A stretch of 64,000 nucleotides of DNA from a candidate division FCPU426 bacterium (GCA_963719085.1 CAVRAL010000001.1:544001-608000), one strand, 5' to 3'. Shown: positions 1,423-60,160, numbered from the stretch's first letter. Numbers and translations are program-made. The notes: generated by a model from the sequence alone, not told the origin.

Positions 1423-1449
1423 TAAAGTCTGTCAGAGTAATGTCGTTAG
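1423..1449 (+). promoter_or_regulatory. Possible sigma28 (FliA)-type promoter upstream of flgD
   Basis: TAAA-N15-GTCGTTAG against consensus TAAA-N15-GCCGATAA; flagellar context. Confidence 0.4.
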
Positions 1450-1474
1450 GAATTGAGAAGAAGGGGGTGAGTTT

Positions 1475-1885: not shown

Positions 1886-1933
1886 AAAGTAGTTAGGGTT
1901 TAACAGGCTTTAAAGAAGGGCGGGTGAGGACAA

Positions 1934-2344
1934 GTGGTTCAGCAAGTTAATTTTAATGACGCTTCCTTAAAACCGATGGATTCGGTGCAGAATCAGGCCC
2001 AGATCCAGATTTTGCAGCAGCAGGCCAGCAAGGCCGCGGAATCGGTTCAGTCGTTTACGGATGTGCTTCAAACGACCGTCAATCAGGGAACGGCTTTAAA
2101 ATTCTCCGCGCACGCGAAAGACCGATTGAGCTTACGCAATATCAATCTTTCGGCGGAGGACGTTTCCCGGATGACGGATGCCGTGAATAAGGCGGCGGCG
2201 AAGGGCGCGAAACAATCCTTGCTGGTTATGAACAACTTGGCTTTTATCGTCAGCGTCACCAATCGGACGGTGATTACGGCGTTGGACGATAGCAACATGA
2301 AGGAGAATGTTTTTACGAATATTGATAGTGCGGTAATTGTGTAA
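1934..2344 (+). CDS. Flagellar operon protein (TIGR02530-like)
   Basis: LKFSAHAKDRL...AVNKAAAKGAKQSLLVMNNLAFIVSVTNRTVITALD...ENVFTNIDSAVIV; typical position between flgD and flgE. Confidence 0.9.
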   Translation: MVQQVNFNDASLKPMDSVQNQAQIQILQQQASKAAESVQSFTDVLQTTVNQGTALKFSAHAKDRLSLRNINLSAEDVSRMTDAVNKAAAKGAKQSLLVMNNLAFIVSVTNRTVITALDDSNMKENVFTNIDSAVIV

Positions 2345-2375
2345 CTTGCCGTTAGGAATTGTGGTGCAGTAAATA

Positions 2376-2444
2376 TCGGGCTGGACCTCTTAGAGGGGGC
2401 CCGAATCAGGGTTGGTGGATTACCAACCTAATACTTCTAGGAGG
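2376..2444 (+). promoter_or_regulatory. Two-hairpin, GGA-containing leader before the flgE ribosome-binding site
   Basis: TCGGGC..GCCCGA stem (2376-2404) with an internal TGGA loop; GGGTTGGT-GGATT-ACCAACCT stem-loop (2409-2429); SD AGGAGG at 2439-2444. Confidence 0.5.
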
Positions 2445-2449
2445 ACGTC

Positions 2450-4318
2450 ATGGGTCTCGAAGCAATGTATAGCGCGATTTCCGGTTTGCAGGGTGATAGC
2501 ACGTGGTTGGATGTCATTGGAAATAACATTTCCAACGTCAACACCACGGCTTACAAGGCGAGCCGTCTCGAGTTTTCAAACCAAATCAGCAACAACTTAA
2601 ACAGCGGCACCGGGGACGATCCGGCGGAAGGCCTCGGCGGAACCAATCCGGAGCAGGTCGGATTGGGTGTCAAGGTGGCTTCCATCGATACCTTGTTTAC
2701 CCAAGGCCAGCTCCAACAGACGGGTATCACCACTGATATCGCCATCACGGGCACAGGCTTCCTCGACGCGAAGGTGGGGGATACAACCTACCTGACGCGA
2801 GCCGGCAATTTGAACTTCGACAGCAATGGAAATTTGGTCGACCAAAACGGCGGCTTGATCCAGGGGTATACTGCTTCGCTCGAATATACTCAAACCACAG
2901 TCGACAACAACGTCCCTCTGGTTGTTACCTCGGCGAATTTGGTTTTGAACAATCAAAACCCGGGCAACATCAGCGACATCCAGATCAAGCCCGACATGGT
3001 AGTTCCGGCCAAAGCGACGACGGTCATGAATATCGCCGGCAATCTGGATTCGTTCCAGCAGGCTGATCAGACCGGAGGTATCCTGGACGTCGCTACGACC
3101 GCTGCGGGGCCTTTGTTGCCCTTTGTTGAAGCACCAGGTGTTACTACAAATGCGGCGGATTTGGTCATTGGTCCCGATGTTCGCGCAGGGGCTCCCGCAG
3201 GCGGGGTGGTTCTCCACCAAACTGGAAACCTTTCCACAGGAAATCCTGTGATCACGGGAGGGGGCGTGCCTTTGGCCACCGCTCGGACTACCAATACGTT
3301 TGCCTGGAATCAACAGCCACCTATTTCGCCAGCAACGGAAACGGTATCGACGGTTTATGATTCCTTGGGCAATCCTCATGAAATCACGACCCTCTATTAT
3401 CAGGTGAATGACTTAGGCGAGGCGGGTGTTAATAACCCGACGGCTGCGGGTCAGAGCCAGGCGGTTTACGCTTGGTATTCGTTTGATACGACGGGTGGCG
3501 TAGCTCCCTTTAGTGGCGCGGTAGTTCCCGCAGGTAGCAACGCTCCGGATTCGAATTTAGTCGGGGGAACCGGTATCGCGGAGGACTATACCCGCAATAC
3601 GGGCGATACCTATGTTGGAGATTTCTTGGTCTTCAACACCGATGGATCTTTGGCCACGACGGGCGGCGCGGATGTCACGGGCGCCAATGCGACCATGGTG
3701 CAAGCCAAAATTTACTTGCCGCCGGCTGATAACAACGCCGGGGTCGCGACTTTGCCTGCCAATTCTCCTTTGCCGACCATTGGTGCCAATATCACCCAAA
3801 TCGGTATGAATTTCGGTACCGCGGGTATTTTGGGAACTGGAGAGCGGGATGGCTTGTTCAGCGATGCGGAAGGAACCTTCCAAGTCGTGAACGGGGTCAA
3901 TACCTACGTGCCGAGCGATACCGCCACCGTGAAGTCGCAAGACGGATACGCGGACGGAACCTTGCAAAGCCTTTCCTTCGACAAGACCGGTACGATTCAA
4001 GGGGTCTTCTCGAACGGTAAGACCTTCGCTTTGGGCCAAGTGGTCCTCACCTCGGTCACCAACCAGGAAGGTCTCGAGAGTGTCGGGAACGGCTACTACA
4101 GCCAAACTGCCAGCTCGGGCCCGTCCTTCACGGGTTTGGCCGGTACGGACAACTTGGGAACAGTGGCGGGGAGCTCTTTGGAAGGGTCGAACGTCGACTT
4201 GACCGTGGAACTTTCCAACATGATCATCGCCCAACGGGGTTATGAATCGAACGCCCGGGTTATCTCGGTCGTCAATTCGACCTTGCAGACCTTGACGCAG
4301 TTGGGCCAAGGCTCTTAA
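2450..4318 (+). CDS. flgE: Flagellar hook protein FlgE (long form, 622 aa)
   Basis: N-terminal SGL...LDVIGNNISNVNTTAYK; YLTRAGNLNFDSNGNLV; C-terminal LEGSNVDLTVELSNMIIAQRGYESNARVI. Confidence 0.96.
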   Translation: MGLEAMYSAISGLQGDSTWLDVIGNNISNVNTTAYKASRLEFSNQISNNLNSGTGDDPAEGLGGTNPEQVGLGVKVASIDTLFTQGQLQQTGITTDIAITGTGFLDAKVGDTTYLTRAGNLNFDSNGNLVDQNGGLIQGYTASLEYTQTTVDNNVPLVVTSANLVLNNQNPGNISDIQIKPDMVVPAKATTVMNIAGNLDSFQQADQTGGILDVATTAAGPLLPFVEAPGVTTNAADLVIGPDVRAGAPAGGVVLHQTGNLSTGNPVITGGGVPLATARTTNTFAWNQQPPISPATETVSTVYDSLGNPHEITTLYYQVNDLGEAGVNNPTAAGQSQAVYAWYSFDTTGGVAPFSGAVVPAGSNAPDSNLVGGTGIAEDYTRNTGDTYVGDFLVFNTDGSLATTGGADVTGANATMVQAKIYLPPADNNAGVATLPANSPLPTIGANITQIGMNFGTAGILGTGERDGLFSDAEGTFQVVNGVNTYVPSDTATVKSQDGYADGTLQSLSFDKTGTIQGVFSNGKTFALGQVVLTSVTNQEGLESVGNGYYSQTASSGPSFTGLAGTDNLGTVAGSSLEGSNVDLTVELSNMIIAQRGYESNARVISVVNSTLQTLTQLGQGS

Positions 4319-7333: not shown

Positions 7334-8305
7334 ATGATCCCGACTTCTTCGCGCTTGCGCCGGATACTTATTTTTTCATTTTTTTTATCGCTCGGGTTCA
7401 ACCAACTCGCCCAGGCCCAAACCGGCGGCCGGAGCGCTTTCGAGTTTTTGAAAATTTCGCCATTCTCCCGCGCGGTCGGGATGGGGGAAGCTTATTCGGC
7501 GGTGGGTGATGATGTGGCGTCCATTCAATACAATCCGGCCGGTTTGGCCAGTATCTTAAACAACGAACTGGATTTCACTTATCTGTCGCTTTACCAGGGG
7601 GTCAATTTTGAGTCGGTGGCCGTCGCGGTCCCCTTGGAGACTCAGTTACCCGGGATCGGCGGCGTGGTGGCGGCCAATGTGAATATCGTCCAAGGCGGAT
7701 CTTTTCAGCGAACCGATGATTCGGGCAACCCGAACGGGACCTTTACGACGGGCGATGATATTGTGACCTTGGCTTACGCGAAGTCTTTTGGCATGGTTCA
7801 ATTGGGTGCTTCCGGAAAATTCATTCAACAGCAAATTGACACGGTCACCAACACCCTTTTCGCGGCCGACGCCGGGGTCGTGGTAACGCCTTCGTTTCCG
7901 GGGATGCGGGTGGGACTTTCGATTAAAAACATCGGGGCCCAAGACAACAGCGACTATGATTTGCCCATGATCTTGGACGCGGCGATTTCTTACCGCCGCT
8001 ACGAGCTTTTTACCTATCAGGACGACGGGGCCATCAGCGTTGAGACCGATTTTCCGATCCATCCGATCGAGGATCAGGTCGGAATGAGGGTCGGAGCCGA
8101 GTATAATTTTAAGTGGGTGGGAAGCCGGGCGACCTTGCGGATGGGCTATAAGTTTTTGGATCAGAATCTTTCGGGCACCGGGTTCACGGTGGGGGCGGGC
8201 TATTCTTTGGATTTGGACGGCGCCGTGGTTTTCCTGGATTACGCGTTCGCGCCCGAGGATGTTTTTGGGGTGTCGAACCGCCTTTCGCTTTCCACGAAAT
8301 TTTAA
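7334..8305 (+). CDS. PorV/PorQ-like (UPF0164) outer-membrane beta-barrel
   Basis: Signal peptide; FLKISPFSRAVGMGEAYSAVGDDVASIQYNPAGLA motif; ends DYAF...RLSLSTKF. Confidence 0.85.
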   Translation: MIPTSSRLRRILIFSFFLSLGFNQLAQAQTGGRSAFEFLKISPFSRAVGMGEAYSAVGDDVASIQYNPAGLASILNNELDFTYLSLYQGVNFESVAVAVPLETQLPGIGGVVAANVNIVQGGSFQRTDDSGNPNGTFTTGDDIVTLAYAKSFGMVQLGASGKFIQQQIDTVTNTLFAADAGVVVTPSFPGMRVGLSIKNIGAQDNSDYDLPMILDAAISYRRYELFTYQDDGAISVETDFPIHPIEDQVGMRVGAEYNFKWVGSRATLRMGYKFLDQNLSGTGFTVGAGYSLDLDGAVVFLDYAFAPEDVFGVSNRLSLSTKF

Positions 8306-8317
8306 AAGGGTCAACGA

Positions 8318-9325
8318 ATGACCGCGAGGTTTTCCTTAATGAAAAGCGTTTTATTTTCGATTGCCCTATGTTTTTGGGCTTTTCAGGCTTTGGCCCAAGG
8401 CGTGGGAACGACCACGGGGGATATTTTAAAAATTAACCTGGGGGACCGGCCCGCCGGCATGGCGGGGGTTTATACGGCCATGGGGGACGACTCTTACTCC
8501 ATTGATTACAATCCGGCCGGATTGGCGCTTTTAAGATCCACGCAGTTGATTGTGCTGCACTTGGACAGCCTGGCCCAAATTCAATACGAGTATTTGACTT
8601 TCGCCACGCCTTTAGGCATCGACAATACGGTGGCGGCCAACTTGATTTACCGCCATATGCCGCCCATTGACAATAACAATGGAAATCCGGCGGTCAATGC
8701 GGACGATTTTTTGGCCGAAGCCACTTTCGCCCATGTCTTTTCGACCTCGTTAAGGGTGGGCGGGACGATTAAATTCCTCAAAAGTGATTTGGCGAACTAT
8801 ACGGCCTCCGCTTTTTGCGGGGACCTGGGGGTTCAATTGGATAAACTGCCCTATGGCATCCGGGTGGGTCTTGCGATCCAAAACCTGGGGCCGGGTATGA
8901 CGTTCGCGCCCCCGGGCACTTCGCCGCCGCCGAATACGCCTTCCGAACCCTTGCCCATGTTCATCCGTTTGGGGATTGGGACCCATCAGGTGATTGATTC
9001 GACCAAGGATTTAAATTTGGGCGTTGAGATTTTCAAGCCCAGCGACCAAAGCATCAAGGCGGCTTTTGGGGGCGAATTTTGGATTTTCCCCCAGCTGTTC
9101 GCGGTCCGCGCCGGATATAAAATTGAGAATTTTGGCTCCATCCCCTCGGACGCTTCCGCCAACGTTTTCCAGTATTACACCTTGGGCTGCACTTTGACGC
9201 GCCGTGTGGACGATAACGATTTTTCGCTCGACTTGGCCTACGACCCGGGGAATTTTGGCGAGACGGTGGAGGACACTTTTTCTTTCGCGCTCAACTTTAA
9301 GTTTAATGAATTCCGGATTTTTTGA
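8318..9325 (+). CDS. PorV/PorQ-like (UPF0164) outer-membrane beta-barrel, second paralogue
   Basis: Signal peptide; LKINLGDRPAGMAGVYTAMGDDSYSIDYNPAGLA; terminal Phe. Confidence 0.85.
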   Translation: MTARFSLMKSVLFSIALCFWAFQALAQGVGTTTGDILKINLGDRPAGMAGVYTAMGDDSYSIDYNPAGLALLRSTQLIVLHLDSLAQIQYEYLTFATPLGIDNTVAANLIYRHMPPIDNNNGNPAVNADDFLAEATFAHVFSTSLRVGGTIKFLKSDLANYTASAFCGDLGVQLDKLPYGIRVGLAIQNLGPGMTFAPPGTSPPPNTPSEPLPMFIRLGIGTHQVIDSTKDLNLGVEIFKPSDQSIKAAFGGEFWIFPQLFAVRAGYKIENFGSIPSDASANVFQYYTLGCTLTRRVDDNDFSLDLAYDPGNFGETVEDTFSFALNFKFNEFRIF

Positions 9326-38726: not shown

Positions 38727-41036
38727 GTGGTGAAATACTTCCCATCGGTCCGAGGGTGTCATTTGATTTTGTTCTTCCTGGCATTATCCTTTTTGCTTTA
38801 TCAAAACATCCCCGCTTTTTCAGAAACCATTACGGTTGGGGATACCAACGTTTCCTTAAGCATGGACGGCCACCTTCAAGATTGGCCCGATTGTCGAATG
38901 ATTAATCTGGACAACGCTGATCAGGTGGTTGAGGGGAAGTTTTTTTGGAAAGGGCCGGATGATTTCAACGGCCGTATTTTTATCACCTACGACCAAGAAT
39001 TTCTCTATTTGGCGGCGGTCGTGACCCGCAACGGGACCCCGACTAACGCCAACGCCCCCGCGATCCTTTGGAACGGGGATTGCCTGGAGGTCTATCTTTC
39101 GACCGATCCCGATCCCGCCGACCATCGGCGGTTGACCCGGGGTGATTACCATATCGGCATTTCGCCCGGGACCAAGTGCGCGAATTCCCAAGTCTGGTGT
39201 TTCAACCAGGGGAAAGCCGTGCCGGGAGCGCGGGTAAAAGCCAAGAACTCAAAAAAAGGTTATGTGCTTGAGGCAGCCTTGCCGCTAAAATTTTTCTCGG
39301 GCTTGAATATCGGGCCTCGTCAAACTTGCGGTTTCAATGTGGCTTTGGATGAAGGGGGGGCGGTGAGCGGAAATCGATTGGTTCAAATGGATCTTTCGGG
39401 ACACGCCAACAGTTGGCAAAACCCCTCGGTTTGGAACCGGATCGAATGGATCGGCGCGACCCAGGTTGCGGTGCCCCCGGCTGACGAAGAGGATGAAAAT
39501 TCGATTTTGGTCAAAGACGGAACCCAAGGCGCCATCTTTTTGGGTGTTAAAACTCTCGCCGGAGTTGTTTTGGATAGCGGGGGGAAGCCGCTCGCGGGCG
39601 CGAAAGTGAGCACTTGGCCCGCCACGGAGCCGGTAACCACCGACGCCGCCGGAAAATTCACCCTTGCTCAGGTGAAGGTTTACCGCCAGACGGTCATTTA
39701 TGGGCGGCAAGACGGCTATTACACCTCGCTGGGAGTTCCCAATCCGGCTTCCTGGGCCACCACGATCCGGTTATCGGCCATGCCGGTCTCCGTTTTGGAT
39801 TCCCATCATGGGTTGAATCCTGTTTTTTGGGGGGCGAATATTTCATTGGCTCCGGGTGGTTTGAATCTGCCGACGGATTTGCCGGTGAGTTTGGTCAAGA
39901 CCTTAGGGTTGGGGATTCTCTGGCTCAAAGCGGATGGACTTGAGAATAGGGATCCGGCCGCCCAAAAGGATATCTTGGACCAATGGGTCGCCTATGCCCA
40001 GGCGATCGGGGCCGAGCCGGCGGTTGAGGTCCCGATTGGGCCCAACGCTTCCGATTTGGGAACCGAATGGGCGGGGATGGCCGGGGGTAAAATTCATTAT
40101 TGGACTCTGGGAAACGAACCGGACCGTCCGGCCCCCTCATTGTCCGTTTCTTTTCAAAATTACAACGCGTATGACTACATCAATGATTTTCGGGAATTTT
40201 ACAATTCGGTTAAAAGGGTTGATCCTTCGTTAATCGTTTTAGGGCCGAATTTGGCTTTCCCCGAGGCGGAAGACGCAAAAGACTGGCTGACTCCCTTTCT
40301 GCGGTTTGACGGGGACATCGTTAATCTTGTCTCAGCGGCCCATTACGCGGGTGATTCCCGGGCCCAGGCTTCCGCTTCGAATTTGGCGGAAGACGCCCGG
40401 GTATTCGCGCCGGATTTTCAAACACTCCAGAGCAAGGTTTCTCAAAACTCCGACATTTATATTCCGGTTGTCATCTCCAATGTCGGGCTTTATCCCGCGC
40501 CGGTCTCGATGTCCGCCCTGGGCGCCGCCGGTAGCGATCCGGTGACGGATTTCACGGACGCGCTTTGGGAAGCGGAAGTGGCGGGGACGCTGCTTCAAGC
40601 GGGGGCCTGTATGGGCGCTTTCGGCGACTTGGAAAGGCCGGATGGTTTGGGTCTCATTTCCAAGGGAAACCTAAATCCGGCGGCTTGGGTTTTGAAGATT
40701 TTCGCCGGCCGTTGGAAAGGGGTTCCTGTGACAGCCCAAGTTTTGAAACCATTGATCAGTGTTTACGCGGCGCAGGATCCCCAAACCAAGGATCTGTCGC
40801 TTTTTATTCTCAATCGAAGCCATCAATATTATTGGCTCAACATTTCCCTGAACGGACAAAGCGATGATTTGGCCGTGGACGCGGGCCTTGATTCCCATTT
40901 TCGCTTCGAGGTTCCGGATCAAGCGGTGGCTTCTTTAAGGATTAAGGCCGACCATTCGCCGGGGGACGCCGAGATTTATACGGCGAAGATGGCCGAGGCG
41001 GAACAAGCGCCTTCGGTCCAAGCCTTAAAACCTTGA
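38727..41036 (+). CDS. Secreted multidomain carbohydrate-active-like protein: CBM9/DOMON-like, carboxypeptidase-regulatory-like Ig, clan GH-A-like barrel
   Basis: Signal peptide; MDGHLQDW...YLAAVV...WNGDCLEVY...GYVLEAALP; GVVLDSGGKPLAGAKV..TTDAAGKF; YWTLGNEPD. Confidence 0.7.
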   Translation: MVKYFPSVRGCHLILFFLALSFLLYQNIPAFSETITVGDTNVSLSMDGHLQDWPDCRMINLDNADQVVEGKFFWKGPDDFNGRIFITYDQEFLYLAAVVTRNGTPTNANAPAILWNGDCLEVYLSTDPDPADHRRLTRGDYHIGISPGTKCANSQVWCFNQGKAVPGARVKAKNSKKGYVLEAALPLKFFSGLNIGPRQTCGFNVALDEGGAVSGNRLVQMDLSGHANSWQNPSVWNRIEWIGATQVAVPPADEEDENSILVKDGTQGAIFLGVKTLAGVVLDSGGKPLAGAKVSTWPATEPVTTDAAGKFTLAQVKVYRQTVIYGRQDGYYTSLGVPNPASWATTIRLSAMPVSVLDSHHGLNPVFWGANISLAPGGLNLPTDLPVSLVKTLGLGILWLKADGLENRDPAAQKDILDQWVAYAQAIGAEPAVEVPIGPNASDLGTEWAGMAGGKIHYWTLGNEPDRPAPSLSVSFQNYNAYDYINDFREFYNSVKRVDPSLIVLGPNLAFPEAEDAKDWLTPFLRFDGDIVNLVSAAHYAGDSRAQASASNLAEDARVFAPDFQTLQSKVSQNSDIYIPVVISNVGLYPAPVSMSALGAAGSDPVTDFTDALWEAEVAGTLLQAGACMGAFGDLERPDGLGLISKGNLNPAAWVLKIFAGRWKGVPVTAQVLKPLISVYAAQDPQTKDLSLFILNRSHQYYWLNISLNGQSDDLAVDAGLDSHFRFEVPDQAVASLRIKADHSPGDAEIYTAKMAEAEQAPSVQALKP

Positions 41037-41992
41037 GCCAGGGACAGGCGCGAATGCGGGAAGGAAAACCGGAGCCGGGAATGATTCAAGTGAATCCTCT
41101 GGACTCGCTTGTTTTTTGCTATCAGGCGGTTATCTCGCTGGTCATTCTTTTTTCAAAAATTCCCGATGAGGACAAGACTCGTTTATTGGTTGAGCATCTT
41201 ATCTTTTTTGCCGGTCTTGTTTTGTTTTTGAAGGTGGTTCAGGCTTTTGACAACCCGGCGGCCCGGTTTTTCCGGGAAATGTACCCTTTGATCTTGATGC
41301 TTTTCTTTTACAAGGAAGTGGGCTTGCTGATCCACGGCTATTTTGATTGGAGCCTGGATGACTGGCTTTTGAGCAAGGACTATCAATTGGGGCATATCGC
41401 CCTGTCGGTTTGGCATTTACAGCAGTTTCATCCGCCGTCCCGATTTTTAAACGAGATTTTCAGTTTGGGATACGGCTTTTACCTGGTACTTATCCCGGGG
41501 GCGGCTTTCATCCTCTATTTCCGGGCGTCGCTGGCGGTTTTCAGGACATTTCTATTTTCGATCAGCTTCACTTATTATCTATGTTACTTATTGTTCATTT
41601 TTTTTCCGGCGGAAAGCCCCCGGTTTTATATCCCCGGCCTTCGGGAGTCCCTTCAGGGCTATTACATTTCCGATTGGGTTCATACGGTGGTGGAAGGGAA
41701 CGCCTTTCCCGGCGGATCGTTTCCCAGTTCCCATATCGCCGCCTCGGTCATCTGCCTTCGCGCTTTTCCTTATTTAGGCCGGTTTCGCTACCTGGCGGGT
41801 TTTTTCATGTTGCTTTTGGTTTTGGGGACCATTTACGGACGTTATCATTATTTCATTGATGTGACAGCCGGTTTAGTAGTAGGTTTAGCTTGTTACGCAT
41901 TAGCGCCTTGGCTTCAAAAACGCTGGCCACTCGTCTTGAATTGGAAACAGGAACCCTATGGAAGACCCCAAGAAACCGCTCACGGAGGCTGA
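41033..41992 (+). CDS. PAP2-superfamily membrane protein, Aur1/inositol-phosphorylceramide-synthase-like
   Basis: Multi-TM; FFPAESPRF, FPSSHIA and TIYGRYHYFIDV motifs; start codon uncertain. Confidence 0.75.
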   Translation: MSQGQARMREGKPEPGMIQVNPLDSLVFCYQAVISLVILFSKIPDEDKTRLLVEHLIFFAGLVLFLKVVQAFDNPAARFFREMYPLILMLFFYKEVGLLIHGYFDWSLDDWLLSKDYQLGHIALSVWHLQQFHPPSRFLNEIFSLGYGFYLVLIPGAAFILYFRASLAVFRTFLFSISFTYYLCYLLFIFFPAESPRFYIPGLRESLQGYYISDWVHTVVEGNAFPGGSFPSSHIAASVICLRAFPYLGRFRYLAGFFMLLLVLGTIYGRYHYFIDVTAGLVVGLACYALAPWLQKRWPLVLNWKQEPYGRPQETAHGG

Positions 41993-49661: not shown

Positions 49662-49842
49662 ACGGAAGCGATTCCTGTTTCACGCGGGATTCAGTGTCAG
49701 ATGAGGCGACTCTCCGCTCAAAATTCCTCGATTTGTGAACTTGTCGGCCTCATTTCCTTGGTTCTTCACTTCATCATTCCTGAAAAATGACGTTATGCAA
49801 GGGGTGTCCTTGTATTCAAAAGGGCGGTTATGGGGGAATCGG

Positions 49843-51372
49843 GTGGATAAGTTGGATTTGAGAAAATTTCGATCGGTTTTAATAGTTGGATTTTTATTCA
49901 TCCCCGGTTGGGGATTGGCCCAAATGACCGATACCCCGACTGAAACGCCTGTTTTTACCGATACGCCGTCAAGTACCCCGTCCTGGACCGGTACTTTCAC
50001 GTCTACGGCCACGGTTTTTTTATCCCCCACTCCAACCCCGACCGCCACTTTGGTTTTGACGCCTCCTTGCGGAACCGTGAACATATTTGGAAACTCGTCC
50101 ACGGCTAATACCGCCGGAGGGGCCGCTTCGTACAATCCGGGCGAGCGGGCCAGTGTTTTTCCCTTAGCGGGCGGGGGAGTGGTTTACAGTATTTCGCTTT
50201 ACGCCCAAGCCAGCGACGTGGGGATTCCGGTGGTGGCGGCTATTTTTAGCGGTGTGCCGGGCGTGATCGGCGGTTTGATTGTCCAATCGGCGCCTCAAAC
50301 CCTGGTGTTGGGCTGGAATGTCATTCCGGTTCAACCAACTTACTTGAACGCGAATTATTATTGGTTAGCCTATATGTTTGGAGGCTCCAGCTATCATGTG
50401 ACGGCCCAAACCGCCGCCGCGAACAGCGGCGTTTATACGACTTCCACGGTTACTTTCGGGTCTTTCTCCTCCTCCTTTACGGCGCCAACCACTATTTCGG
50501 TTTCAGACGCGATCTATGCCAACTATTGCCTGGCTACGGCAACCCCGACTTATTCTCCAACGATCACCTGGACTCCCACGGTGACCTTGAGCCCGAGCTT
50601 TACCCCGACGCCGACTTTGACGGATACCTTTACACCCAGCTTGACCCCAACCCCCAGCGTGACCGATACGCCGTCCCTAAGTCCGACCATGACGGCCAGC
50701 GAAACGCCTTCGGAGACTTCGACTTTAACCCTCACGGTCACTTTGACGCCGCAGGCTACCGATACGCCGACTTCCACTTGGACGGCCAGTTTGACGCCCT
50801 CTCAAACCTTGACGCAAAGCCCTACCGTGACGGATATCCCAACCGCGACAACGACCAGCGGCCTATCACCCACGGTGACTTTCACCGTAACTGTAACTGA
50901 AACGCCAACCGCTTCCGCGACTTTTAGCCCTTCCTCGACCCCCAGTCCCCTCGAAACCCAGACCTTGAGCCCCACGTTAACGCCCACGGTTTTGTCCACG
51001 ACTACCTTTACCGAGACGCCGACCGCGACCGTTTCGGCGACTTCAACGGCAACCGCGCTTTTGCCCAGTCCGACTTCTACGGCCACCGTCGGAGGGCCGT
51101 CTTCGCCCATCCTTTATCCCAATCCGATCCGTGGAAACGGCCCGGTTCAGTTTCAAGTCGACTTTGGGTCACCCCACGATTACGTGACGGTCCGGGTTTT
51201 TACGACGGCTTTCCGGAAAATTTACGAGACCCAAGACAAAAACGTTCCGGCGGGCGTCTATACAAAGGATCTAACTGGTTTTCAGCTCTCGGATACGGCG
51301 AATGGAATTTATTACGTGGTGATCACAACACCGACCGAGCGGTGGATGGATAAGCTTTTGATTCTTCGTTGA
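49843..51372 (+). CDS. Secreted Thr/Pro/Ser-rich protein with a Cys-bracketed beta-sandwich domain and a T9SS type-A-like CTD
   Basis: Probable GTG start at 49843; signal peptide ...GWGLAQ; TPT repeats; ILYPNP...VRVFTTAFRKI...ANGIYYVVI...KLLILR. Confidence 0.8.
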   Translation: MDKLDLRKFRSVLIVGFLFIPGWGLAQMTDTPTETPVFTDTPSSTPSWTGTFTSTATVFLSPTPTPTATLVLTPPCGTVNIFGNSSTANTAGGAASYNPGERASVFPLAGGGVVYSISLYAQASDVGIPVVAAIFSGVPGVIGGLIVQSAPQTLVLGWNVIPVQPTYLNANYYWLAYMFGGSSYHVTAQTAAANSGVYTTSTVTFGSFSSSFTAPTTISVSDAIYANYCLATATPTYSPTITWTPTVTLSPSFTPTPTLTDTFTPSLTPTPSVTDTPSLSPTMTASETPSETSTLTLTVTLTPQATDTPTSTWTASLTPSQTLTQSPTVTDIPTATTTSGLSPTVTFTVTVTETPTASATFSPSSTPSPLETQTLSPTLTPTVLSTTTFTETPTATVSATSTATALLPSPTSTATVGGPSSPILYPNPIRGNGPVQFQVDFGSPHDYVTVRVFTTAFRKIYETQDKNVPAGVYTKDLTGFQLSDTANGIYYVVITTPTERWMDKLLILR

Positions 51373-52512: not shown

Positions 52513-52542
52513 AAAAAGGCGGCGGTGGTTCCGCCGCCTTTT
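52513..52542. terminator. Bidirectional terminator between convergent genes
   Basis: AAAAAGGCGGCGG-TGGTT-CCGCCGCCTTTT. Confidence 0.8.
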
Positions 52543-52572: not shown

Positions 52573-53724
52573 TTAAGCGAGTGGTTTCTCGTAGATGCGG
52601 TATTTCTTGATGATTTTCCCGCCCATGGCCGCGATGCCGTTGTTGATGCCCTCGTTATCTTCCAAGGTCCAGGACAACTCGCCGCCCTTGATTTTGCGCT
52701 TATTGCCGGTCTTTAAGGCTTCCAAGTAAAGCACGGCTTCCAGGCCTTTTTTGCGGTATTCGGGGAGCACGCCCATGGCCATTTCCCGGGTATCGTCAAA
52801 CTTACAGGTGAGGAATTTCACTAGGGCGAAGGGATCGTGCCAGGAAAAAAGTTCCCCGTCCATCTTGATGAGCGCTTGGTTGACATCCGGAACCACCAAG
52901 TTAAAACCGATGGCCTTGCCTTCCACTTCGGCAAACACCACAAAGTCGGGCCAGACGATGTCCTTAAGTTTTTTGACCTGGTAATTAAACTCTTCGTCCG
53001 TCATCGGGACAAAGCCCCAGTTTTTCTCCCAAATTTTGTTGTAAAGCTCTTTCAAAATGGCGGCGTCTTCGTAAAGCTTTTTCATGTTGAGCGGACGAAT
53101 AGTGATTTTTTCCCGCTGTTTCGTGCGCTCGGCGATTTTGACGATGCGTTCGGGCAGCTCAATCTGGGCGCTGAGATACCAGGCGTAAAGATCCTTGGCT
53201 TTGGTCAAGCCCGCTTTTTGGGACAGGTCGTGGTAATAAGGCGGGTTATAGGTCATGGCGATGCGGGCGGGGGAGTCATAACCTTCCAAAAGAAACCCGA
53301 AATAATCGTCGTTCGAGGTAAAGCTGGCGGGGCCGCGCATGCTGGTCATTCCTTCGGCCTTGAGAAATTTTCCGGCTTCTTGGAACAAAGCTTGGGCCGC
53401 CGATAGGTCGTTGACACATTCAAACCAACCGAAGAAACCTACCTTCTCGTTCCAAAACTTGATGAAATTGTCGTCCACGCTGGCTGAGATGCGGCCCACC
53501 ATTTCGTTTTTATCGTCGTAAGCGGCGAAGAGGGCCACCTTGGCGTGCTTCCAGAAGGGGTTTTTGTTGGGGTTTAACAGGCTTCGTTGATCATCCAGAA
53601 AGGGAGGGACCCAGTTGGGATCTTTTTTACCGTCGGCGGTTTTATAGATTTTCCAAGGGAGATGAAGAAAGGCTTCCAATTCTTTTTTGTTTTCGACATG
53701 GATCGGCTTAACCGTGACGGCCAT
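52573..53724 (-). CDS. GNAT-fold acyltransferase, bacterial ceramide synthase (bCerS/YghO-like)
   Basis: FLHLPWKIY..DPNWVPP, VGRISA, GFFGWFE, MRGP, YNPPYY, WEKNWGFVPMT, GVLPEYRKKGL, LSWTLEDN; directly downstream of the SPT-like gene. Confidence 0.82.
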   Translation of the reverse strand: MAVTVKPIHVENKKELEAFLHLPWKIYKTADGKKDPNWVPPFLDDQRSLLNPNKNPFWKHAKVALFAAYDDKNEMVGRISASVDDNFIKFWNEKVGFFGWFECVNDLSAAQALFQEAGKFLKAEGMTSMRGPASFTSNDDYFGFLLEGYDSPARIAMTYNPPYYHDLSQKAGLTKAKDLYAWYLSAQIELPERIVKIAERTKQREKITIRPLNMKKLYEDAAILKELYNKIWEKNWGFVPMTDEEFNYQVKKLKDIVWPDFVVFAEVEGKAIGFNLVVPDVNQALIKMDGELFSWHDPFALVKFLTCKFDDTREMAMGVLPEYRKKGLEAVLYLEALKTGNKRKIKGGELSWTLEDNEGINNGIAAMGGKIIKKYRIYEKPLA

Positions 53725-53774
53725 GGCAAGCTCCTTCAAGAGAATGAGGTTTTATTTGATTCAAAAACCAGGGA

Positions 53775-54956
53775 TCAGGGAATCAATCCGTATTTTTTTC
53801 CAACTTTTTGAAAGCTTTCCAACACGTGGGTGAGTTGGGCGTCGGTATGGGTGGAAGTGTAGGACGTGCGGATCAAAGTTTTTTCGGACGGAACGGCCGG
53901 CGAGACGATGGGCGTCGCGAAGACACCCATTTCGCCCAGTTCCTTCGTGATGGCGAAGGTTTTCATGTTGTCGCCGATCATCAAAGGAATGATGGCTGAA
54001 TCGGTATTAAGCGTGTTCCAGCCCATGGCCTTAAATTCCGAGCGCATGCGCTTGATGATTTCCCAAAGACGCGTGCGGCGTTCGGGCTCCCGTTTGATGA
54101 TTTCCAGGCTTTTTAAAGCCGCGGCCGTATCGGCGGGGGACAGGCTTGCGGTAAAGATAAGTGGACGGCTGTTGTGCCGCAAATAATCGATCACTTTGTG
54201 GGTGGAGGCGATGAAGCCCCCGATGGAAACGAGGGATTTGGAGAAGGTTCCCATGACCATATCCACGTCTTTTTGGACCCCGAAATGGGCGCCGACGCCT
54301 TCGCCTTGCGGACCCAAGACTCCGATCGAATGGGCCTCGTCGACCATGAGCCGGGCGTTGTACTTTTTCTTTAATTCCACGATTTTGGGCAAGTTGCAAA
54401 TATCGCCCCCCATGGAAAAGACGCCGTCGGTCACGATCAGTTTGGGATCATCGGCATGGTTGGCCAAGACCCGTTCAAGCTCTTCCATGTTGCTATGCTC
54501 ATATTTGACTGTTTTGGCGAAGGAGAGTTTTTGGCCGTCCACAATGGAGGCGTGATTCTCCCGGTCGGAGATGATGTAGTCGCCCCGGTTGGCGATGGTG
54601 GAAAGCGCGCCCAGATTGGCCAAAAAACCCGTGGAATAAACCAGGGCTGATTCCATATGGACGTAATCGGCCAGTTTTTCCTCAAGTTCCACCCGAATAT
54701 CCAAGGTGCCGTTTAAGAAGGGGGAACCGGTGCAGGCGGAGCCGTATTTACGAACCGCCTGGACCATGGCTTCCAAGACTTCGGGGTGGGTGACCAGCCC
54801 CAGGTAGTTGTTGGAGCCGACCATGATCATTTTTTTGCCGCCGATGGTCACTTCGGTTCCCATTTGGGAGGTGTTAGGGCGGAAATAAGGATAGACGCCC
54901 GCCTTGCGGACATCGTCCGCGGCCGTCCAATTGTTCGCCTTGTCAAAAATGTCCAT
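53775..54956 (-). CDS. spt: PLP-dependent alpha-oxoamine synthase, probably serine palmitoyltransferase
   Basis: GVYPYFR, GSNNYLGL, FLNGTLD, DRENHASI, TDGVFSMGGD, DEAH, GTFSKSL (PLP lysine); ATG at 54956 with SD AGAGG; flanked by bCerS-like and reductase genes. Confidence 0.8.
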   Translation of the reverse strand: MDIFDKANNWTAADDVRKAGVYPYFRPNTSQMGTEVTIGGKKMIMVGSNNYLGLVTHPEVLEAMVQAVRKYGSACTGSPFLNGTLDIRVELEEKLADYVHMESALVYSTGFLANLGALSTIANRGDYIISDRENHASIVDGQKLSFAKTVKYEHSNMEELERVLANHADDPKLIVTDGVFSMGGDICNLPKIVELKKKYNARLMVDEAHSIGVLGPQGEGVGAHFGVQKDVDMVMGTFSKSLVSIGGFIASTHKVIDYLRHNSRPLIFTASLSPADTAAALKSLEIIKREPERRTRLWEIIKRMRSEFKAMGWNTLNTDSAIIPLMIGDNMKTFAITKELGEMGVFATPIVSPAVPSEKTLIRTSYTSTHTDAQLTHVLESFQKVGKKYGLIP

Positions 54957-55024
54957 GACACCTCTTTTTTGAGTTGTGATCGTTTCGGGTTCCACGCTGT
55001 TTCCTTGCTTCAAAAGGTGCGGGC

Positions 55025-55054
55025 ATTATAAGATAGCGCCGCTATGTTAATCAA
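55025..55054 (-). promoter_or_regulatory. Sigma70-like spt promoter with a palindrome in the spacer
   Basis: Minus strand TTGATT-N18-TATAAT; the spacer holds ATAGCG-C-CGCTAT (55033-55045). Confidence 0.5.
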
Positions 55055-55084
55055 ATTATTTACCCCCCAATTCCCTTAGTTTCC

Positions 55085-56068
55085 ATGAACTTTCCTATCC
55101 TTGTGACCGGCGCCAGCGGATTTGTGGGAGGCCATTTGGTCGAGGCGCTCACCCGTCAAAAAAAGAAAGTCAAACTGCTCGTCCGCTCTTCCAGCCGGCT
55201 GATTTTTAAACGTACCGCGAATCTTGAACTATGCGAGGGGGATGTCACCGACAAGCCGTCCGTCGAAAAAGCCATGCGAGGGGTTGAGACGGTCTATCAT
55301 TTGGCGGGTCTTTTGCGGGGGGCGAATTACGCCGATTACGAAAAGGTCAATGTCGATGGCACGCGGAATATTTGCGAGGCCTTCGCCCGCCAAAAGAAAA
55401 AGAACCGGTTGATTTACGTTAGCTCGCTTTCGGCCGCCGGACCCTCTGAAAAGAATGGCGCGTTGACCGAAGAAATGGCCCCCCGGCCCGTCAGTTTTTA
55501 TGGTCAAACCAAACTCGGCGGGGAAGAAGTGGTGCGGTCTTACCGGCGACGGATGAAAATAGTCATCCTTCGTCCGGGTGCGGTTTACGGTCCCCGGGAA
55601 AAAGACATTCTCGAATATTTTAAAATGGTGAGGCAAGGGTGGGTTTTGATTCCCGGCAAAGGGTCTTTGGAAGTCAGCTTTGTTTATGTGGCGGACTTGG
55701 TCCAGGCGATCCTTTTGGCCGGGAAATCCCCGAAGGCCCCGGGAAACACCTTTTTTGTCTCTGATGGGAAAAGTTACACTTGGGAAGATTACTCAGCGGT
55801 GATCGGGAAGGCCCTCCACCGCCCCTTCCGTGTTTTGCATGTGCCCATGGTTTTAGTCAAAGGTACGGGCTATTTGGCCGATTTAAAGGCCCGTCTTACC
55901 GGAAAGGCGTCCATTGTCAGTACGGATAAGATTAAAGAAGCGCCGGGCCCGGGATGGGTCTGCAGTAACGAAAAAATTGTAAGGAAATTGGGGTTTAGGC
56001 CCCGCTATGATATCGAGCAAGGCATCCGCCAATCGGTCGATTTCTATTTAAAAGCCGGGTGGATCTAA
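55085..56068 (+). CDS. NAD(P)-dependent extended SDR, probable ceramide/3-oxo-sphingolipid reductase (CerR-like)
   Basis: VTGASGFVG, YHLAG, NVDGT, YVSSLSAAGP, YGQTK, RPGAVYGP; divergent from spt. Confidence 0.72.
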   Translation: MNFPILVTGASGFVGGHLVEALTRQKKKVKLLVRSSSRLIFKRTANLELCEGDVTDKPSVEKAMRGVETVYHLAGLLRGANYADYEKVNVDGTRNICEAFARQKKKNRLIYVSSLSAAGPSEKNGALTEEMAPRPVSFYGQTKLGGEEVVRSYRRRMKIVILRPGAVYGPREKDILEYFKMVRQGWVLIPGKGSLEVSFVYVADLVQAILLAGKSPKAPGNTFFVSDGKSYTWEDYSAVIGKALHRPFRVLHVPMVLVKGTGYLADLKARLTGKASIVSTDKIKEAPGPGWVCSNEKIVRKLGFRPRYDIEQGIRQSVDFYLKAGWI

Positions 56069-56093
56069 GCCGAAAAATTTGGGGGAGACGACG

Positions 56094-57206
56094 ATGAAAT
56101 ATTTTCTTTTGGCTTTTTGCTTGTTGATGACGAGTTTCACCAAGGGTTGGGCCCAAGAGGGCTCCGTGGATTCGCTGCTTCCCCCCGACCACATTTTGGA
56201 GGATGTTCCCTGGCTGGACGATGGCGGCAAAGTGGAACAAAAGGGTCTTTTCAGCTTTGAGGATATCCGGGCGGTTGACTCAAAAGATTTACTTCTGATC
56301 TACCGCTCCTCGGACTCTTCCGAGGATTTGACCCAGCCTCATTCCCAAACCCTGGTGGTTTGTTTTTATAACCCGACCCAAAAAAAATATGAAAAAGCTT
56401 ATTCGGAAGAAGGACAGGAAATTCAATGGGTGAAAGTGGTGTCCGATATTTCGCTGAAAAAAAGCTTTCTTTTCGTGGACCGCTTGAACGCGGACGGACA
56501 GCAGGTTTTAAAGGCCTACGCCTGTTTGAATAATGTCATTCAGCCGGTTTTGGAAGCGCAAACAGCCCACGTTTACGCCGGCTTTTTGAACGATGCGAAG
56601 GGATTCTCGGTTCTCTGCTCCGACAAGGTCATCCCTCAAAGCGAGGCGGACGCGGAGCATTTGTTTAAGTGGAATGACGGGAAATCCCTTTTTGTGGAAG
56701 CGGCTTCCACGCCGGCGGATGGATGGATGGGTTCCTCGATCGCGGGCGCCGGATCGGTTGTGGCGGTGGCGACACCCGTCGCCTCAACTCCCCAGCCGGT
56801 CGCGGCCGCTGTAACGCCGCCATCAGCCGCGGCGACTCCGGTGGCCGTGATTTCAACTCCGGCCCCCGTGGCGGCTTCCACGGTGTCCAAGGATTGGTGG
56901 GGAACGCCTTTCGACGCCGCCGGCGCGTCGGCTAAGTTGGATAATGAAATTGTGCCGCAAGCCGTGAAGGCCGGACAAATGGCGGTCTTGGGCAAGAAGG
57001 CCAACGGCTTCTTCCAAAAGGCGCGCGAACAGGGCGTCAACGCGCCGGCGTTGGCCAAGATGAGGGCCGGTTACTACTTGGCGGTGGCCTCCACCCTTTC
57101 GGGGATGAGCCAGGATAAAGACGCGGCTTACTATTTGGATTTGGCTTTGAAGCTTGACCCGACTAATGCCCAGGCTCTGGATTTAAAAACGAAATTAAAA
57201 TCCTGA
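56094..57206 (+). CDS. Exported hypothetical protein with an Ala/Pro/Thr linker and C-terminal TPR-like helices
   Basis: Signal peptide (...KGWAQ); ATPVA-type linker; [15 protein letters not shown]. Confidence 0.7.
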
Positions 57207-57267: not shown

Positions 57268-57351
57268 TGGTGCCCGAGGCGGGACTCGAACCCGCACGGG
57301 TTTCCCCATACGCACCTCAAGCGTACGTGTCTGCCATTTCACCACCCGGGC
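57268..57351 (-). tRNA. tRNA-Leu(GAG)
   Basis: Minus strand GCCCGGG...CTCGGGC-ACCA, 84 nt; anticodon arm TACGC-TTGAGGT-GCGTA; long variable arm. Confidence 0.97.
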
Positions 57352-57456: not shown

Positions 57457-59796
57457 TTGGTCCTGAATGGTTTGTTATTTCTTATTTTGGCCGCGCTTGC
57501 CGCCGGAACGGGCTTTTCGGCGCTTCTTCCCTCACTCGGCGCTTTTTTCGACATTCCCTGGACACTGGATGTTTTTTCGAAAACTTGGGAATTGAAACTG
57601 GCCGCTCTTTTTTGGAGCGGGGGGATCGTATTGGGGCTGGCGGGTTGGACTGAAAGTTTTCGGATTTTTTTATTCGGGCATGACCGTTCTGCGGAAATAG
57701 GTCCCCTTTGTTTTGGCATCAGCTTGGCCGGGTTTTCCCTTTTTGTTTTCGGGTTAGGGGTGAGTGGAATCTTCTTTTCGCCCTTGGTGGTAATTTTCTT
57801 TTTTGTCCGCGTTCCGGCGGGCATGAGACTGCTGTCCGGACCCTGGTTTCACTCCTGGACGCCCGCGCAAAAAGGACTTCTTTTGGCGGGCTTGCTGCCC
57901 TGGTTTTTCGAGTACGCGTCCCCGCCCATCCTGTTTGACGCGGTTTTAGACCATTTTCGGTTCGCCGAAGAAGTCGCTCGCCTTCATCAAATCCCATTTC
58001 ATTGGATCAATCACACGGGTGATATCCCCAAAGGCGCGGAGTTAATCTGGGCGGGTTTTTGGGCCTTGGGCGGTGAAACGCTTGCCCATTTATTAAGCGC
58101 GCTTCCTTTCGCCGGACTTATCTATCTTGGGATGAGTCTGGCCCGTCGTCTTCAGCTTCCCGAATGGCCCGGTGTTTTTATTTTGGTGGCTTGTCCCTTT
58201 TGGATGGCGCTTTTTAGCTGGGGTTACGATGAAGGCTTGCTGGCTTTTTATGAGGTGTTGGCGCTTGTCGGTTTGATGATCGGGTTTGGGAAAAATAAGT
58301 CACCGGCGGGCTTGGGACTTTGTTTCTTTTTTCTCGGCGCGGCCCTGGGAGTGAAATACACGGCTCTATTCGCCTGGGCGGGAATCACGGCGGTATTCAT
58401 ATATCAGACGTTTTTTGAAAAGGACCGGGTCCGGTTTGACCTCCGATGGGTTCTTTTCGCGCTGATCCCTTGCCTGCCTTGGCTTTCGCGCGATGCGCTG
58501 GCCAATGGAAATCCCTTTTACCCCATGGCGTCCGCTTGGTTTGGGGGACCGCCGGGATACAATTCGTCCCTCGAGGCGGACCTCTGGCAGGATACGGGCC
58601 GGGGAAGCGCCGGACTGACTTGGATGGGTGCGCTCAAAACCCTTTGGGTTGATTTTGGTACCGGGCGAAACCAAGTGGGGGCGGTTTTATCCCCCCTTCT
58701 TTTAATGGCGGTTCCGCTTTGGGGAAGGCTTCGAAAATTTTCAACAGCGAGGTTTTTGTTTTTATTCGCAGTTGTTTTTTTTGGCGGCTGGATTGTTTTT
58801 TGCACCAACCTTCGCCATGCCGCCGGCGGGTTGTTGGCGCTCGCCCTTTTGTCCGGGTTAGCTTGGGCTTCGGTTTTTAAAAGTTCCCCCAAACTTCTGC
58901 GATGGGTTTTTGGTTTGGGTTTGATCGTTTCATTTTGGATGGTCTGGGTCGCCCAAATCAACACGACCCTGCCTTATGGATGCGCGCTGGGATTTCAAGA
59001 CCCCTTGACGCGGCTCAAAAGAAACTATGTCATGGATTTCGACACCTTTTCGGCTTATGAGGCGATTGAAAAGTCCTCCGCGGCCGTTGATAAGTCGATG
59101 GCTTTCGCCGTTTATCAAACCTATCCTTTGCGGCGGACCGCCTTTGTTGATTTTTTCTGGAAGCAGCCTATTTTTTTCAATTGGGTTTCCCAATGCCAAA
59201 CCGCGGGACAATTGGCCGAGAAATTAAAGCGGGAAGGGGTCGTTTGTTTTCTTTATCAAAGGTCGGAATCGGCTTTTATGTCGAAAAAAGAAAAAGATTT
59301 TCATTGGAGCGGAATGCCGATCGATGAATATACTCGCTTTTGGGAATATTACACCGAACCCATCGAGATTTTTGAGAACTCCTCGGTTTATCGGATCCTC
59401 GCGACGCCGCTCCCGGAGCCGCGGAAACTAACCGACTTGCCGGGACTGGAGGAAGCGGAAGGGGCGGCCTTGTTCGCGGACCAGCAGAAGGGGCAATGGC
59501 AAGCGGCCTACCAGACAGCGGCGGATTTGACCCGCCAGCGGCCCGAAATTGGATTTGGCTGGGAAAGACGGGCCTATTACGCGGGACGGTTAGGCGATTG
59601 GAAAGAGGCGGTGAAATCGGGTGATCGGGCGGAAGGGTTGGGGAGCGAAACTTTGGATTTGTGCGATACAATGACCTTGAGTTGGGTTCAATTGGGGCAA
59701 CCGAAGCTTGCGGTTTCCTGGAATGAAAAGCGCGAGGCTCGTTCTCGCTGGTTGGAGGGATTAAAGCTTGAATCCTTATCTTTTGAAGAGGAATAA
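57457..59796 (+). CDS. GT-C fold (ArnT/PMT-like) membrane glycosyltransferase-like protein with C-terminal TPR-like helices
   Basis: More than 12 TM helices; PPILFDAVLDH, GVKYTA, PW..RD....GNPFYP motifs; start uncertain. Confidence 0.7.
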   Translation: MVLNGLLFLILAALAAGTGFSALLPSLGAFFDIPWTLDVFSKTWELKLAALFWSGGIVLGLAGWTESFRIFLFGHDRSAEIGPLCFGISLAGFSLFVFGLGVSGIFFSPLVVIFFFVRVPAGMRLLSGPWFHSWTPAQKGLLLAGLLPWFFEYASPPILFDAVLDHFRFAEEVARLHQIPFHWINHTGDIPKGAELIWAGFWALGGETLAHLLSALPFAGLIYLGMSLARRLQLPEWPGVFILVACPFWMALFSWGYDEGLLAFYEVLALVGLMIGFGKNKSPAGLGLCFFFLGAALGVKYTALFAWAGITAVFIYQTFFEKDRVRFDLRWVLFALIPCLPWLSRDALANGNPFYPMASAWFGGPPGYNSSLEADLWQDTGRGSAGLTWMGALKTLWVDFGTGRNQVGAVLSPLLLMAVPLWGRLRKFSTARFLFLFAVVFFGGWIVFCTNLRHAAGGLLALALLSGLAWASVFKSSPKLLRWVFGLGLIVSFWMVWVAQINTTLPYGCALGFQDPLTRLKRNYVMDFDTFSAYEAIEKSSAAVDKSMAFAVYQTYPLRRTAFVDFFWKQPIFFNWVSQCQTAGQLAEKLKREGVVCFLYQRSESAFMSKKEKDFHWSGMPIDEYTRFWEYYTEPIEIFENSSVYRILATPLPEPRKLTDLPGLEEAEGAALFADQQKGQWQAAYQTAADLTRQRPEIGFGWERRAYYAGRLGDWKEAVKSGDRAEGLGSETLDLCDTMTLSWVQLGQPKLAVSWNEKREARSRWLEGLKLESLSFEEE

Positions 59797-59797
59797 T

Positions 59798-60160
59798 TTG
59801 ATCAAGAGTCTTCTCCTTTCATTGTTTGTAGGCTTGTTCGCTCTTCCGCTGCGGGCGCAAACGGCGAGCTTTGCTTTGGATCATAATATTTTTCTGGCCG
59901 TCCCGGGCGCGGCCGTGACGACCACCTTTACCGCCAGTTATTCGGGCAAGGGAACCTTGGCGGTCTATAACACGGCGGGTGAAATCATCCAGACCTTGTT
60001 TCCGGCCAGTTCGGGAAACCAAGTGAACGCCAATCAAATTTATTCTGTGAGTTGGGACGGTAAAAACACAGCCGGTAAAAGTGTGGCGTCCGGAATTTAT
60101 ATTTTTCGCTTGAATTTAAACTTAGGCAGCTACGAAAAAAGGTTGATTGTTCTGCAATAG
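59798..60160 (+). CDS. Stand-alone FlgD-Ig/T9SS-CTD-like exported protein
   Basis: Signal peptide ...PLRAQ; LAVYNTAGEIIQTL...WDGKNTAGKSVASGIYIFRL...KRLIVLQ; TTG at 59798. Confidence 0.8.
   Translation: MIKSLLLSLFVGLFALPLRAQTASFALDHNIFLAVPGAAVTTTFTASYSGKGTLAVYNTAGEIIQTLFPASSGNQVNANQIYSVSWDGKNTAGKSVASGIYIFRLNLNLGSYEKRLIVLQ

Follow-up and report, generated by a model that had tools for sequence, protein, structure and literature searches.

The window analysed here is a 64-kb stretch of DNA from a candidate division FCPU426 bacterium, and within it we describe an interval of three adjacent genes (52573-56068) that we consider likely to form a self-contained module for the synthesis of a (dihydro)ceramide backbone. 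The genes encode an alpha-oxoamine synthase (AOS) resembling serine palmitoyltransferase (SPT, gene spt), a GNAT protein apparently related to the bacterial ceramide synthase bCerS, and an extended short-chain dehydrogenase/reductase (SDR) that is probably CerR-like. The families of the three proteins, their linkage and the fold of the GNAT protein were established from sequence, modelling, trees, synteny and gene fusions. An earlier note on this DNA had proposed that the combination of Spt with bCerS-like and CerR-like partners stands for probable ceramide synthesis, and the proposal is supported by family scores, trees, homology to Escherichia coli and Sphingomonas genes, synteny and natural fusions. 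Statements from the literature are identified by PMC number and rest on excerpts of the papers concerned.

Layout and recurrence of the three genes

Three long open reading frames (ORFs) occupy the interval exactly, and together with the regions that separate and follow them they are arranged as follows:

52518-52538, minus strand: terminator-like GC hairpin with a T run (consensus scan), about 35 bp past the GNAT stop
52573-53724, minus strand: GNAT gene, 383 aa, likely start ATG at 53724; ORF 52573-53739
53775-54956, minus strand: AOS gene (Spt-like), 393 aa, likely start ATG at 54956; ORF 53775-55013
54957-55084, no strand: divergent intergenic region between the Spt and SDR genes, with a promoter-like TTGATT-18-TATAAT at 55054-55025 on the minus strand
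55085-56068, plus strand: extended SDR gene (CerR-like), 327 aa

The AOS gene lies upstream of the GNAT gene on the same strand, with a 50-bp spacer between its stop (53775) and the GNAT ATG (53724), and 128 bp separate the AOS ATG from the divergently oriented SDR gene. This is the arrangement that the earlier note had described, and all ORFs were recovered with the limits given there, as were all the motifs quoted from the AOS (GTFSKSL, DEAH, NHAS) and from the GNAT protein (DPNWVPP, GFFGWFE, YNPPYY, NWGFVP, SWTLEDN). The AOS open frame extends past the ATG at 54956 up to a TTG at 55013, and the public protein set includes the window's own GNAT at 383 aa. GAAGGAG is found 7 nt 5' of the GNAT ATG at 53724 and AAGAGGTG 5' of the AOS ATG at 54956. 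The 50-bp spacer makes it probable that spt and the GNAT gene share a transcript, on which each has a Shine-Dalgarno sequence of its own, and the SDR gene would be transcribed from the shared divergent promoter region. The promoter-like site detected there by a consensus scan has 10 of 12 consensus matches and is a lead only, as the intergenic region is not enriched in promoters (2 sites against 3.4 expected from shuffles). Terminator-like sites numbered 12 against 7.6 expected, and the hairpin at the GNAT end is weak by itself. The promoter-like site and the hairpin are compatible with an spt-GNAT operon, with the proviso that such matches are no commoner than in shuffles.

A genome scan with the GNAT family alignment gave 80 genome loci from many phyla, and their ORFs were searched with the window's three proteins, an SDR being counted at 100 bits or more. 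The loci were distributed as follows:

AOS immediately 5' of the GNAT relative and co-directional with it: 55 of 80 loci
those 55 in which the SDR diverges, as in the window: 32
those 55 with a co-directional SDR: 10
those 55 without an SDR of at least 100 bits: 13
AOS further off from the GNAT relative: 3 of 80 loci
without an AOS in the fetched flanks: 22 of 80 loci

Upstream room was less than 1.3 kb in five of the 80, and among those lacking an AOS are Nitrospirota, Cloacimonadota and some Chlorobiaceae. A gene order that places an AOS immediately before the GNAT relative, in the same orientation, at 55 of the 80 loci is far from chance; an SDR relative is linked to the GNAT gene in 42. 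Clusters with the order and orientation of the window (SDR diverging from AOS, AOS followed by GNAT; seen in the 32 loci above) occur in metagenome-assembled genomes (MAGs) of Ignavibacteriota, Bacteroidota and Chlorobiota, and the same layout is found on plasmid pAUEa of the cultured Aureispira anguillae. The GNAT proteins of these MAG and Aureispira clusters are 40-48% identical to that of the window. AOS-GNAT-SDR operons occur in Streptomyces, where the third gene is an epimerase, and in Rubrobacter. An exhaustive protein search also returned natural AOS-GNAT fusions, P0309 (777 aa) and P0322 (780 aa), in which the AOS half shares 55% and 46% identity, respectively, with the window AOS.

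The window's closest relatives are three loci of its own lineage (L004-L006, 76-84% identity), which form a separate clade with it in both the AOS and the GNAT trees described below. Four neighbours were considered as further cluster members and rejected: the TPR gene at 56079-57206, the gene for a 779-aa membrane protein at 57457-59796, a DUF4921 gene and a metallophosphoesterase gene. Since these recur only in L004-L006, we take the module to consist of three genes.

Family membership of the three proteins

The AOS matches PF00155 (E 7.6e-59), and its motifs NHAS, DEAH and GTFSKSL (at 134, 206 and 236 in the 393-aa numbering) line up with Sphingobacterium SPT, in keeping with the Schiff-base lysine and the His/Asp motifs of AOS-fold enzymes dependent on pyridoxal phosphate (PLP). 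Its top NCBIfam model was NF047600 (CFB-group SPT) with 518.9 bits, followed by bioF (390.4), Kbl (384), ALAS (281) and a CqsA-type model (235). When all PDB sequences were searched, the SPT of Sphingobacterium multivorum (8guh/3a2b) was the best-scoring solved structure with 416.9 bits and residues 24-407 aligned; further matches were a BioF/Kbl enzyme (288.8 bits), Sphingomonas SPT (about 280), E. coli Kbl (270) and the solved cysteate-C-fatty acyltransferase (252.8). The margin of SPT over BioF/Kbl is about 128 bits in both the NCBIfam models and the PDB structures. Within a plasmid collection that includes mislabelled chromosomes, the AOS found its best matches, at 49-53% identity, in AOS genes of the Bacteroidales Parabacteroides, Bacteroides, Phocaeicola and Prevotella, which fall in the same clade and which we take to be SPTs; identity to annotated Kbl/BioF was 37-40%. 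Bacteroides is named among the SPT holders in the excerpts of PMC9386255. At the two Bacteroidales loci that we opened, the AOS gene stands beside a diacylglycerol-kinase-family gene and not beside a GNAT or SDR gene, whereas the window has its three genes adjacent.

Two trees were computed for the AOS. The first had 70 rows, namely the window, 14 annotated references and 55 locus ORFs of at least 340 aa, shorter ORFs being excluded. The references were the E. coli B-type SPT, the Sphingomonas SPT, two Bacteroidales AOS, a Phocaeicola plasmid AOS, the Streptomyces, Rubrobacter, Aureispira and Priestia AOS, two Kbl and three BioF. The window was placed in a 60-row clade (SH-aLRT 96) together with the Bacteroidales AOS and all GNAT-adjacent AOS except that of locus L070, and this clade adjoins the pair formed by the E. 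coli B-type and Sphingomonas SPTs, away from Kbl/BioF. With a site-mixture model on a 38-row subset, a 31-row clade (97) united the window with the two types of SPT and with all cluster AOS retained, and Kbl/BioF were separated at a support of 95. A grouping of the AOS with BioF or Kbl, which the earlier note had set as the outcome that would count decisively against its proposal, was thus not obtained, as both trees place the AOS with the SPTs. We conclude that the protein is SPT-like by sequence and would catalyse the corresponding substrate condensation.

Two AOS sequences behaved unusually. In the 70-row tree the AOS ORF of L070 (a Proteobacteria MAG; ORF from 8646) ends a very long branch that lies towards Kbl/BioF; it is an Spt that has diverged or else another kind of AOS brought next to the GNAT gene. 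A Priestia megaterium plasmid (Bacillota; L087, 5001-6215) carries an SPT-like AOS that is 47% identical to the window AOS and has no GNAT or SDR gene nearby; it adjoins an acyltransferase-family gene and a methyltransferase gene, and it groups in the tree with the cluster AOS of Myxococcota and Streptomyces.

The GNAT protein had a weak match to Pfam (PF00583, E 1.8e-4, residues 229-351 of the 388-aa ORF) and none to NCBIfam. Its homology to E. coli YghO extends over the full length (33% identity, E 1e-66, residues 3-382), and it shares 32% identity with the N-acetyltransferase of the Sphingomonas sphingolipid cluster. Relatives are numerous: a word-indexed search gave 6611 of 8000 scored candidates at E <= 1e-3, and the exhaustive search, run on 50%-identity clusters, gave 1194 at E <= 1e-30 and 3717 at E <= 1e-10. 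The invariant columns of the family alignment span its entire length. A tblastn search of plasmid records hit 45, of which 42 had at least 80% query coverage; the three records that we opened were those of E. coli, Sphingomonas parapaucimobilis and Streptomyces. The S. parapaucimobilis homologue lies about 6 kb from genes for a NAD(P)H-binding protein, an acyl carrier protein (ACP) and an AOS.

An AlphaFold model of the GNAT protein built on a 57-sequence alignment reached a pLDDT of 92.6 and a pTM of 0.90. Its best folds were the tandem-GNAT structures 2wpw, 7q3a and 5kgh (TM 0.57-0.61), followed by MshD, FemX and N-myristoyltransferase, and the protein is accordingly modelled as a tandem-GNAT fold. 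In tandem-GNAT proteins acyl-CoA is usually bound by one half. The fold matches listed for the model included no solved bCerS structure, and a search of the ESM Atlas returned generic GNAT clusters only. PMC9386255 lists, in the excerpted text and under the name aca, CC_1154, yghO (ECD_02850) and Swit_3908 among the acyl-CoA N-acyltransferase genes needed for dihydroceramide synthesis, and the Caulobacter enzymes are now named bCerS and CerR (PMC11087976). Through the homology to YghO and this listing of yghO with CC_1154, the window GNAT can be connected to Caulobacter bCerS (CC_1154/CCNA_01212). As judged from sequence, the protein belongs to the YghO / CC_1154 (bCerS) family and would N-acylate a long-chain base.

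The GNAT tree had 84 rows, two of the 80 loci being excluded because their ORFs were short; in it, sequences with an AOS next door are intermingled with those that have none. The family also contains variants of domain composition. P0241 (784 aa) is a tandem duplication of the whole GNAT protein, and P0382 (494 aa) is a PilZ+GNAT fusion that hints at control by c-di-GMP in some lineages.

The SDR matches the Pfam families Epimerase (PF01370, E 3.6e-39) and 3Beta_HSD (E 1e-32). The TGxxGxxG pattern and the catalytic Ser and YxxxK of an extended SDR are represented in it by TGASGFVGG (residue 8), SSLS (113) and YGQTK (139). It is homologous over its full length to the epimerase/dehydratase gene of the E. 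coli yghO cluster (25% identity, E 5e-38), which sits between the ACP and acyl-AMP ligase genes; PMC9386255 gives CC_1164 and ECD_02852, among others, under the name epi, described in the excerpt as dehydrogenase/epimerase genes. Its top matches among 1231 plasmid-collection records were Streptomyces, Rubrobacter and Aureispira SDRs in AOS-GNAT clusters, a Nonomuraea SDR beside a GNAT gene, and Bacteroidales oxidoreductases. The Nonomuraea SDR, about 100 bp downstream of the GNAT gene, outscored the six other places matched in its 11.8-Mb record. These collection matches and the synteny are the grounds on which we regard the SDR as a candidate CerR orthologue. In Caulobacter, according to PMC11087976, CerR is periplasmic and Spt and bCerS are cytoplasmic. 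The window SDR has no visible N-terminal signal, its Rossmann motif beginning at residue 8, so that nothing in it points to a site outside the cytoplasm.

The earlier note had also remarked that the cluster lacks an ACP gene. This was borne out: phmmer searches with the E. coli and Sphingomonas sphingolipid proteins as queries found no homologue of the sphingolipid ACP (AcpR) or of the acyl-ACP synthetase (AasR) in the 64-kb window at E values up to 10. PMC9386255 divides SPTs into one subgroup from Bacteroidetes and delta-proteobacteria and a second from alpha-, beta- and gamma-proteobacteria, in which spt is usually preceded by an ACP gene. Because the window AOS falls in the Bacteroidetes/delta-proteobacterial subgroup and linkage to ACP and acyl-ACP synthetase genes is a trait of the other, an ACP-less cluster is expected here and is no oddity.

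A close counterpart is the pathway of Caulobacter crescentus, with Spt (CC_1162), bCerS (CC_1154), CerR (CC_1164), AcpR (CC_1163) and AasR (CC_1165) (PMC11087976, PMC9386255). Its three enzymes come from the families found in the window, and the chemistry proposed for them is the same; PMC9386255 places beside CC_1154 and CC_1164 the E. coli genes to which the window GNAT and SDR are homologous over their full length. The window differs in having no ACP or acyl-ACP synthetase gene, in an Spt from the other subgroup and in the adjacency of its three genes. The yghO cluster of E. coli B/BL21-type strains, whose SPT was assayed in PMC9386255, likewise holds homologues of all three window genes, but it has five genes (SPT, AcpR, epimerase, AasR, YghO) including those for ACP and acyl-ACP synthetase, an SPT of the proteobacterial subgroup and a divergent yghO, and it adjoins lptF-lptG. 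In E. coli K-12 the yghO region is defective. Sphingolipid genes adjoin lptF-lptG in both the E. coli (L001, 1349-3495) and the Sphingomonas (L003, 4285-6578) records. Sphingomonas is not known to have lipopolysaccharide, which makes this proximity curious.

Proposed pathway and competing readings

We infer the following route. Spt, a PLP enzyme, would form 3-ketosphinganine by condensing L-serine with a long-chain acyl thioester. Because no dedicated ACP is linked to the genes, acyl-CoA is the most likely acyl donor. The tandem-GNAT enzyme would then put a second acyl chain on the amino group, and the extended SDR would reduce the 3-keto group with NAD(P)H; the product would presumably be destined for the outer membrane.

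Several points weigh against this reading. The AOS score of 518.9 bits is below the trusted cut-off of NF047600 (640), which is an equivalog model built for one group, so that a score under its cut-off does not exclude an SPT. Both AOS trees are quick searches with SH-aLRT support only, and HemA, CqsA and the cysteate acyltransferase, which are absent from them, entered the comparison through scores. The link to Caulobacter bCerS and CerR is indirect, as it runs via the E. coli and Sphingomonas genes and a paper's statement of orthology. SDRs are broadly alike, and 25% identity to the E. coli gene is by itself no proof of orthology. Finally, 22 of the 80 loci carry no AOS in the fetched flanks, so that an association of the GNAT family with SPT may not be universal.

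The alternative that survives best concerns the order of the last two steps. In an order like that of eukaryotes the SDR would act first, making sphinganine from 3-ketosphinganine, and the GNAT enzyme would then acylate sphinganine. Both orders have been proposed for Caulobacter (PMC11087976), and a 3-ketosphinganine reductase activity is described for Bacteroides thetaiotaomicron in the excerpts of PMC9278070; the window SDR, with no visible N-terminal signal, offers nothing that would place it outside the cytoplasm. In Caulobacter, by contrast, deletion of cerR leads to accumulation of oxidised ceramide, and this, like the separation of a periplasmic CerR from cytoplasmic Spt and bCerS, favours acylation first (PMC11087976). 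We regard reduction first as somewhat unlikely for the window. The order of acylation and reduction is disputed in the literature, and the window decides nothing in this respect.

A second alternative keeps the three enzymes and changes the amino acid. With alanine, glycine or cysteate in place of serine, the module would yield a 1-deoxy-sphingolipid, a sulfonolipid-like product or another N-acyl amino-ketone lipid and not a serine-based ceramide. The substrate choice of an AOS is unreadable from sequence with the tools used, 1-deoxysphingolipids are reported to be abundant in environmental bacteria (PMC11334938), and both the score under the SPT equivalog cut-off (518.9 against 640) and the clear relationship to the cysteate-C-fatty acyltransferase structure (252.8 bits) leave room for such a substrate. 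The sulfonolipid (capnine) pathway runs in parallel, with an AOS (cysteate-C-fatty acyltransferase) followed by 3-ketocapnine reductase and N-acylation (PMC9304779, PMC11211663). The window AOS is however much closer to Sphingobacterium SPT than to the cysteate enzyme (416.9 against 252.8 bits), its alignment with SPT runs end to end with motifs in common, it clusters with the Bacteroidales AOS genes, and no cysteate-synthesis gene is present among the annotated neighbours in the window. Taken together these observations make a substrate other than serine quite improbable.

That the genes form a non-lipid cluster, in which a Kbl/BioF-type threonine or biotin enzyme lies by chance beside an acetyltransferase and a sugar epimerase, is suggested by generic annotations ('aminotransferase class I/II', 'GNAT N-acetyltransferase', 'NAD-dependent epimerase/dehydratase') and by HpnA, the hopanoid-associated sugar epimerase, as the best NCBIfam match of the SDR (yet far under cut-off, 119 against 368), and is extremely improbable given that scores (by about 128 bits) and both trees speak against a Kbl/BioF identity of the AOS, that biotin and threonine dehydrogenase genes are absent beside it, unlike in the BioF and Kbl reference loci, and that AOS and GNAT are linked in 55 of 80 loci and even fused. 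Synthesis of a serine-derived (dihydro)ceramide backbone, with acylation before reduction, is the reading that we prefer.

Other genes of the window and wider meaning

Beyond the three genes the window holds the following features:

41033-41992, plus strand: PAP2_3 (PF14378) membrane protein, 319 aa, 11.6 kb from the cluster
56079-57206, plus strand: secreted TPR protein, 375 aa, directly 3' of the SDR gene
57271-57351, minus strand: tRNA gene (Rfam scan), between the genes for the 375-aa TPR protein and the 779-aa membrane protein
57457-59796, plus strand: polytopic membrane protein with a TPR-like tail, 779 aa, no Pfam or NCBIfam match

The Rfam scan of the window gave two tRNAs only and no rRNA. 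A 4-bp overlap joins the PAP2_3 gene to the stop of the CBM9 gene upstream, and the PAP2_3 protein had no NCBIfam or PDB sequence match. At 4 of the 80 loci (Acidobacteria, two Gemmatimonadota and another) a relative of it comes directly 3' of the AOS-GNAT(-SDR) genes in the same orientation, at these positions:

L022: 7196-8041
L026: 7250-8152
L042: 4045-6021
L072: 1604-2965

Six Myxococcota loci have weaker relatives at a distance of 4-5 kb, and in L071 one is directly downstream on the opposite strand. The PAP2_3 family includes the yeast Aur1-type phosphoceramide synthases, and the window protein and its relatives may be candidates for an uncharacterised bacterial ceramide head-group transferase.

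Flagellar hook genes (FliK-like, FlgD, TIGR02530 and FlgE) and two tandem genes of the PorV/PorQ outer-membrane family are found within a few kb of each other, the whole set falling at 3-4318 and 7334-9325, and a small secreted protein at 59768-60160 has a type IX-like tail of the FlgD_ig/CHU_C kind. Flagella and type IX secretion-like parts in one window are an unusual mix. One further gene (49735-51372, plus strand) encodes a 545-aa protein with a long Thr/Pro/Ser-rich middle and no Pfam match, for which a weak relative was found only in L004. It is tempting to speculate that a flagellated PorV/PorQ host, in which sphingolipids have never been shown, makes an outer-membrane phosphosphingolipid by way of the ACP-less module and the PAP2_3 protein (41033-41992), a scenario that we consider doubtful as a whole.

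The general picture is unchanged by our work. With the same three-gene criterion, PMC11334938 (2024) reported Spt-like proteins in MAGs of 38 phyla and raised the number of potential producer phyla from 9 to 40, the three genes being often clustered; the enzymes, their clustering and their spread over dozens of phyla are thus already published. The natural fusions of Spt with bCerS merit specialist attention, as does the PAP2_3 family linked to the cluster, and a useful by-product is a minimal module, clean and free of ACP, that lends itself to heterologous expression. The window adds one more uncultured lineage with the genetic means for ceramides, and the growing list of ceramide-capable bacteria bears on how outer membranes are constructed and on how environmental lipid records are read.

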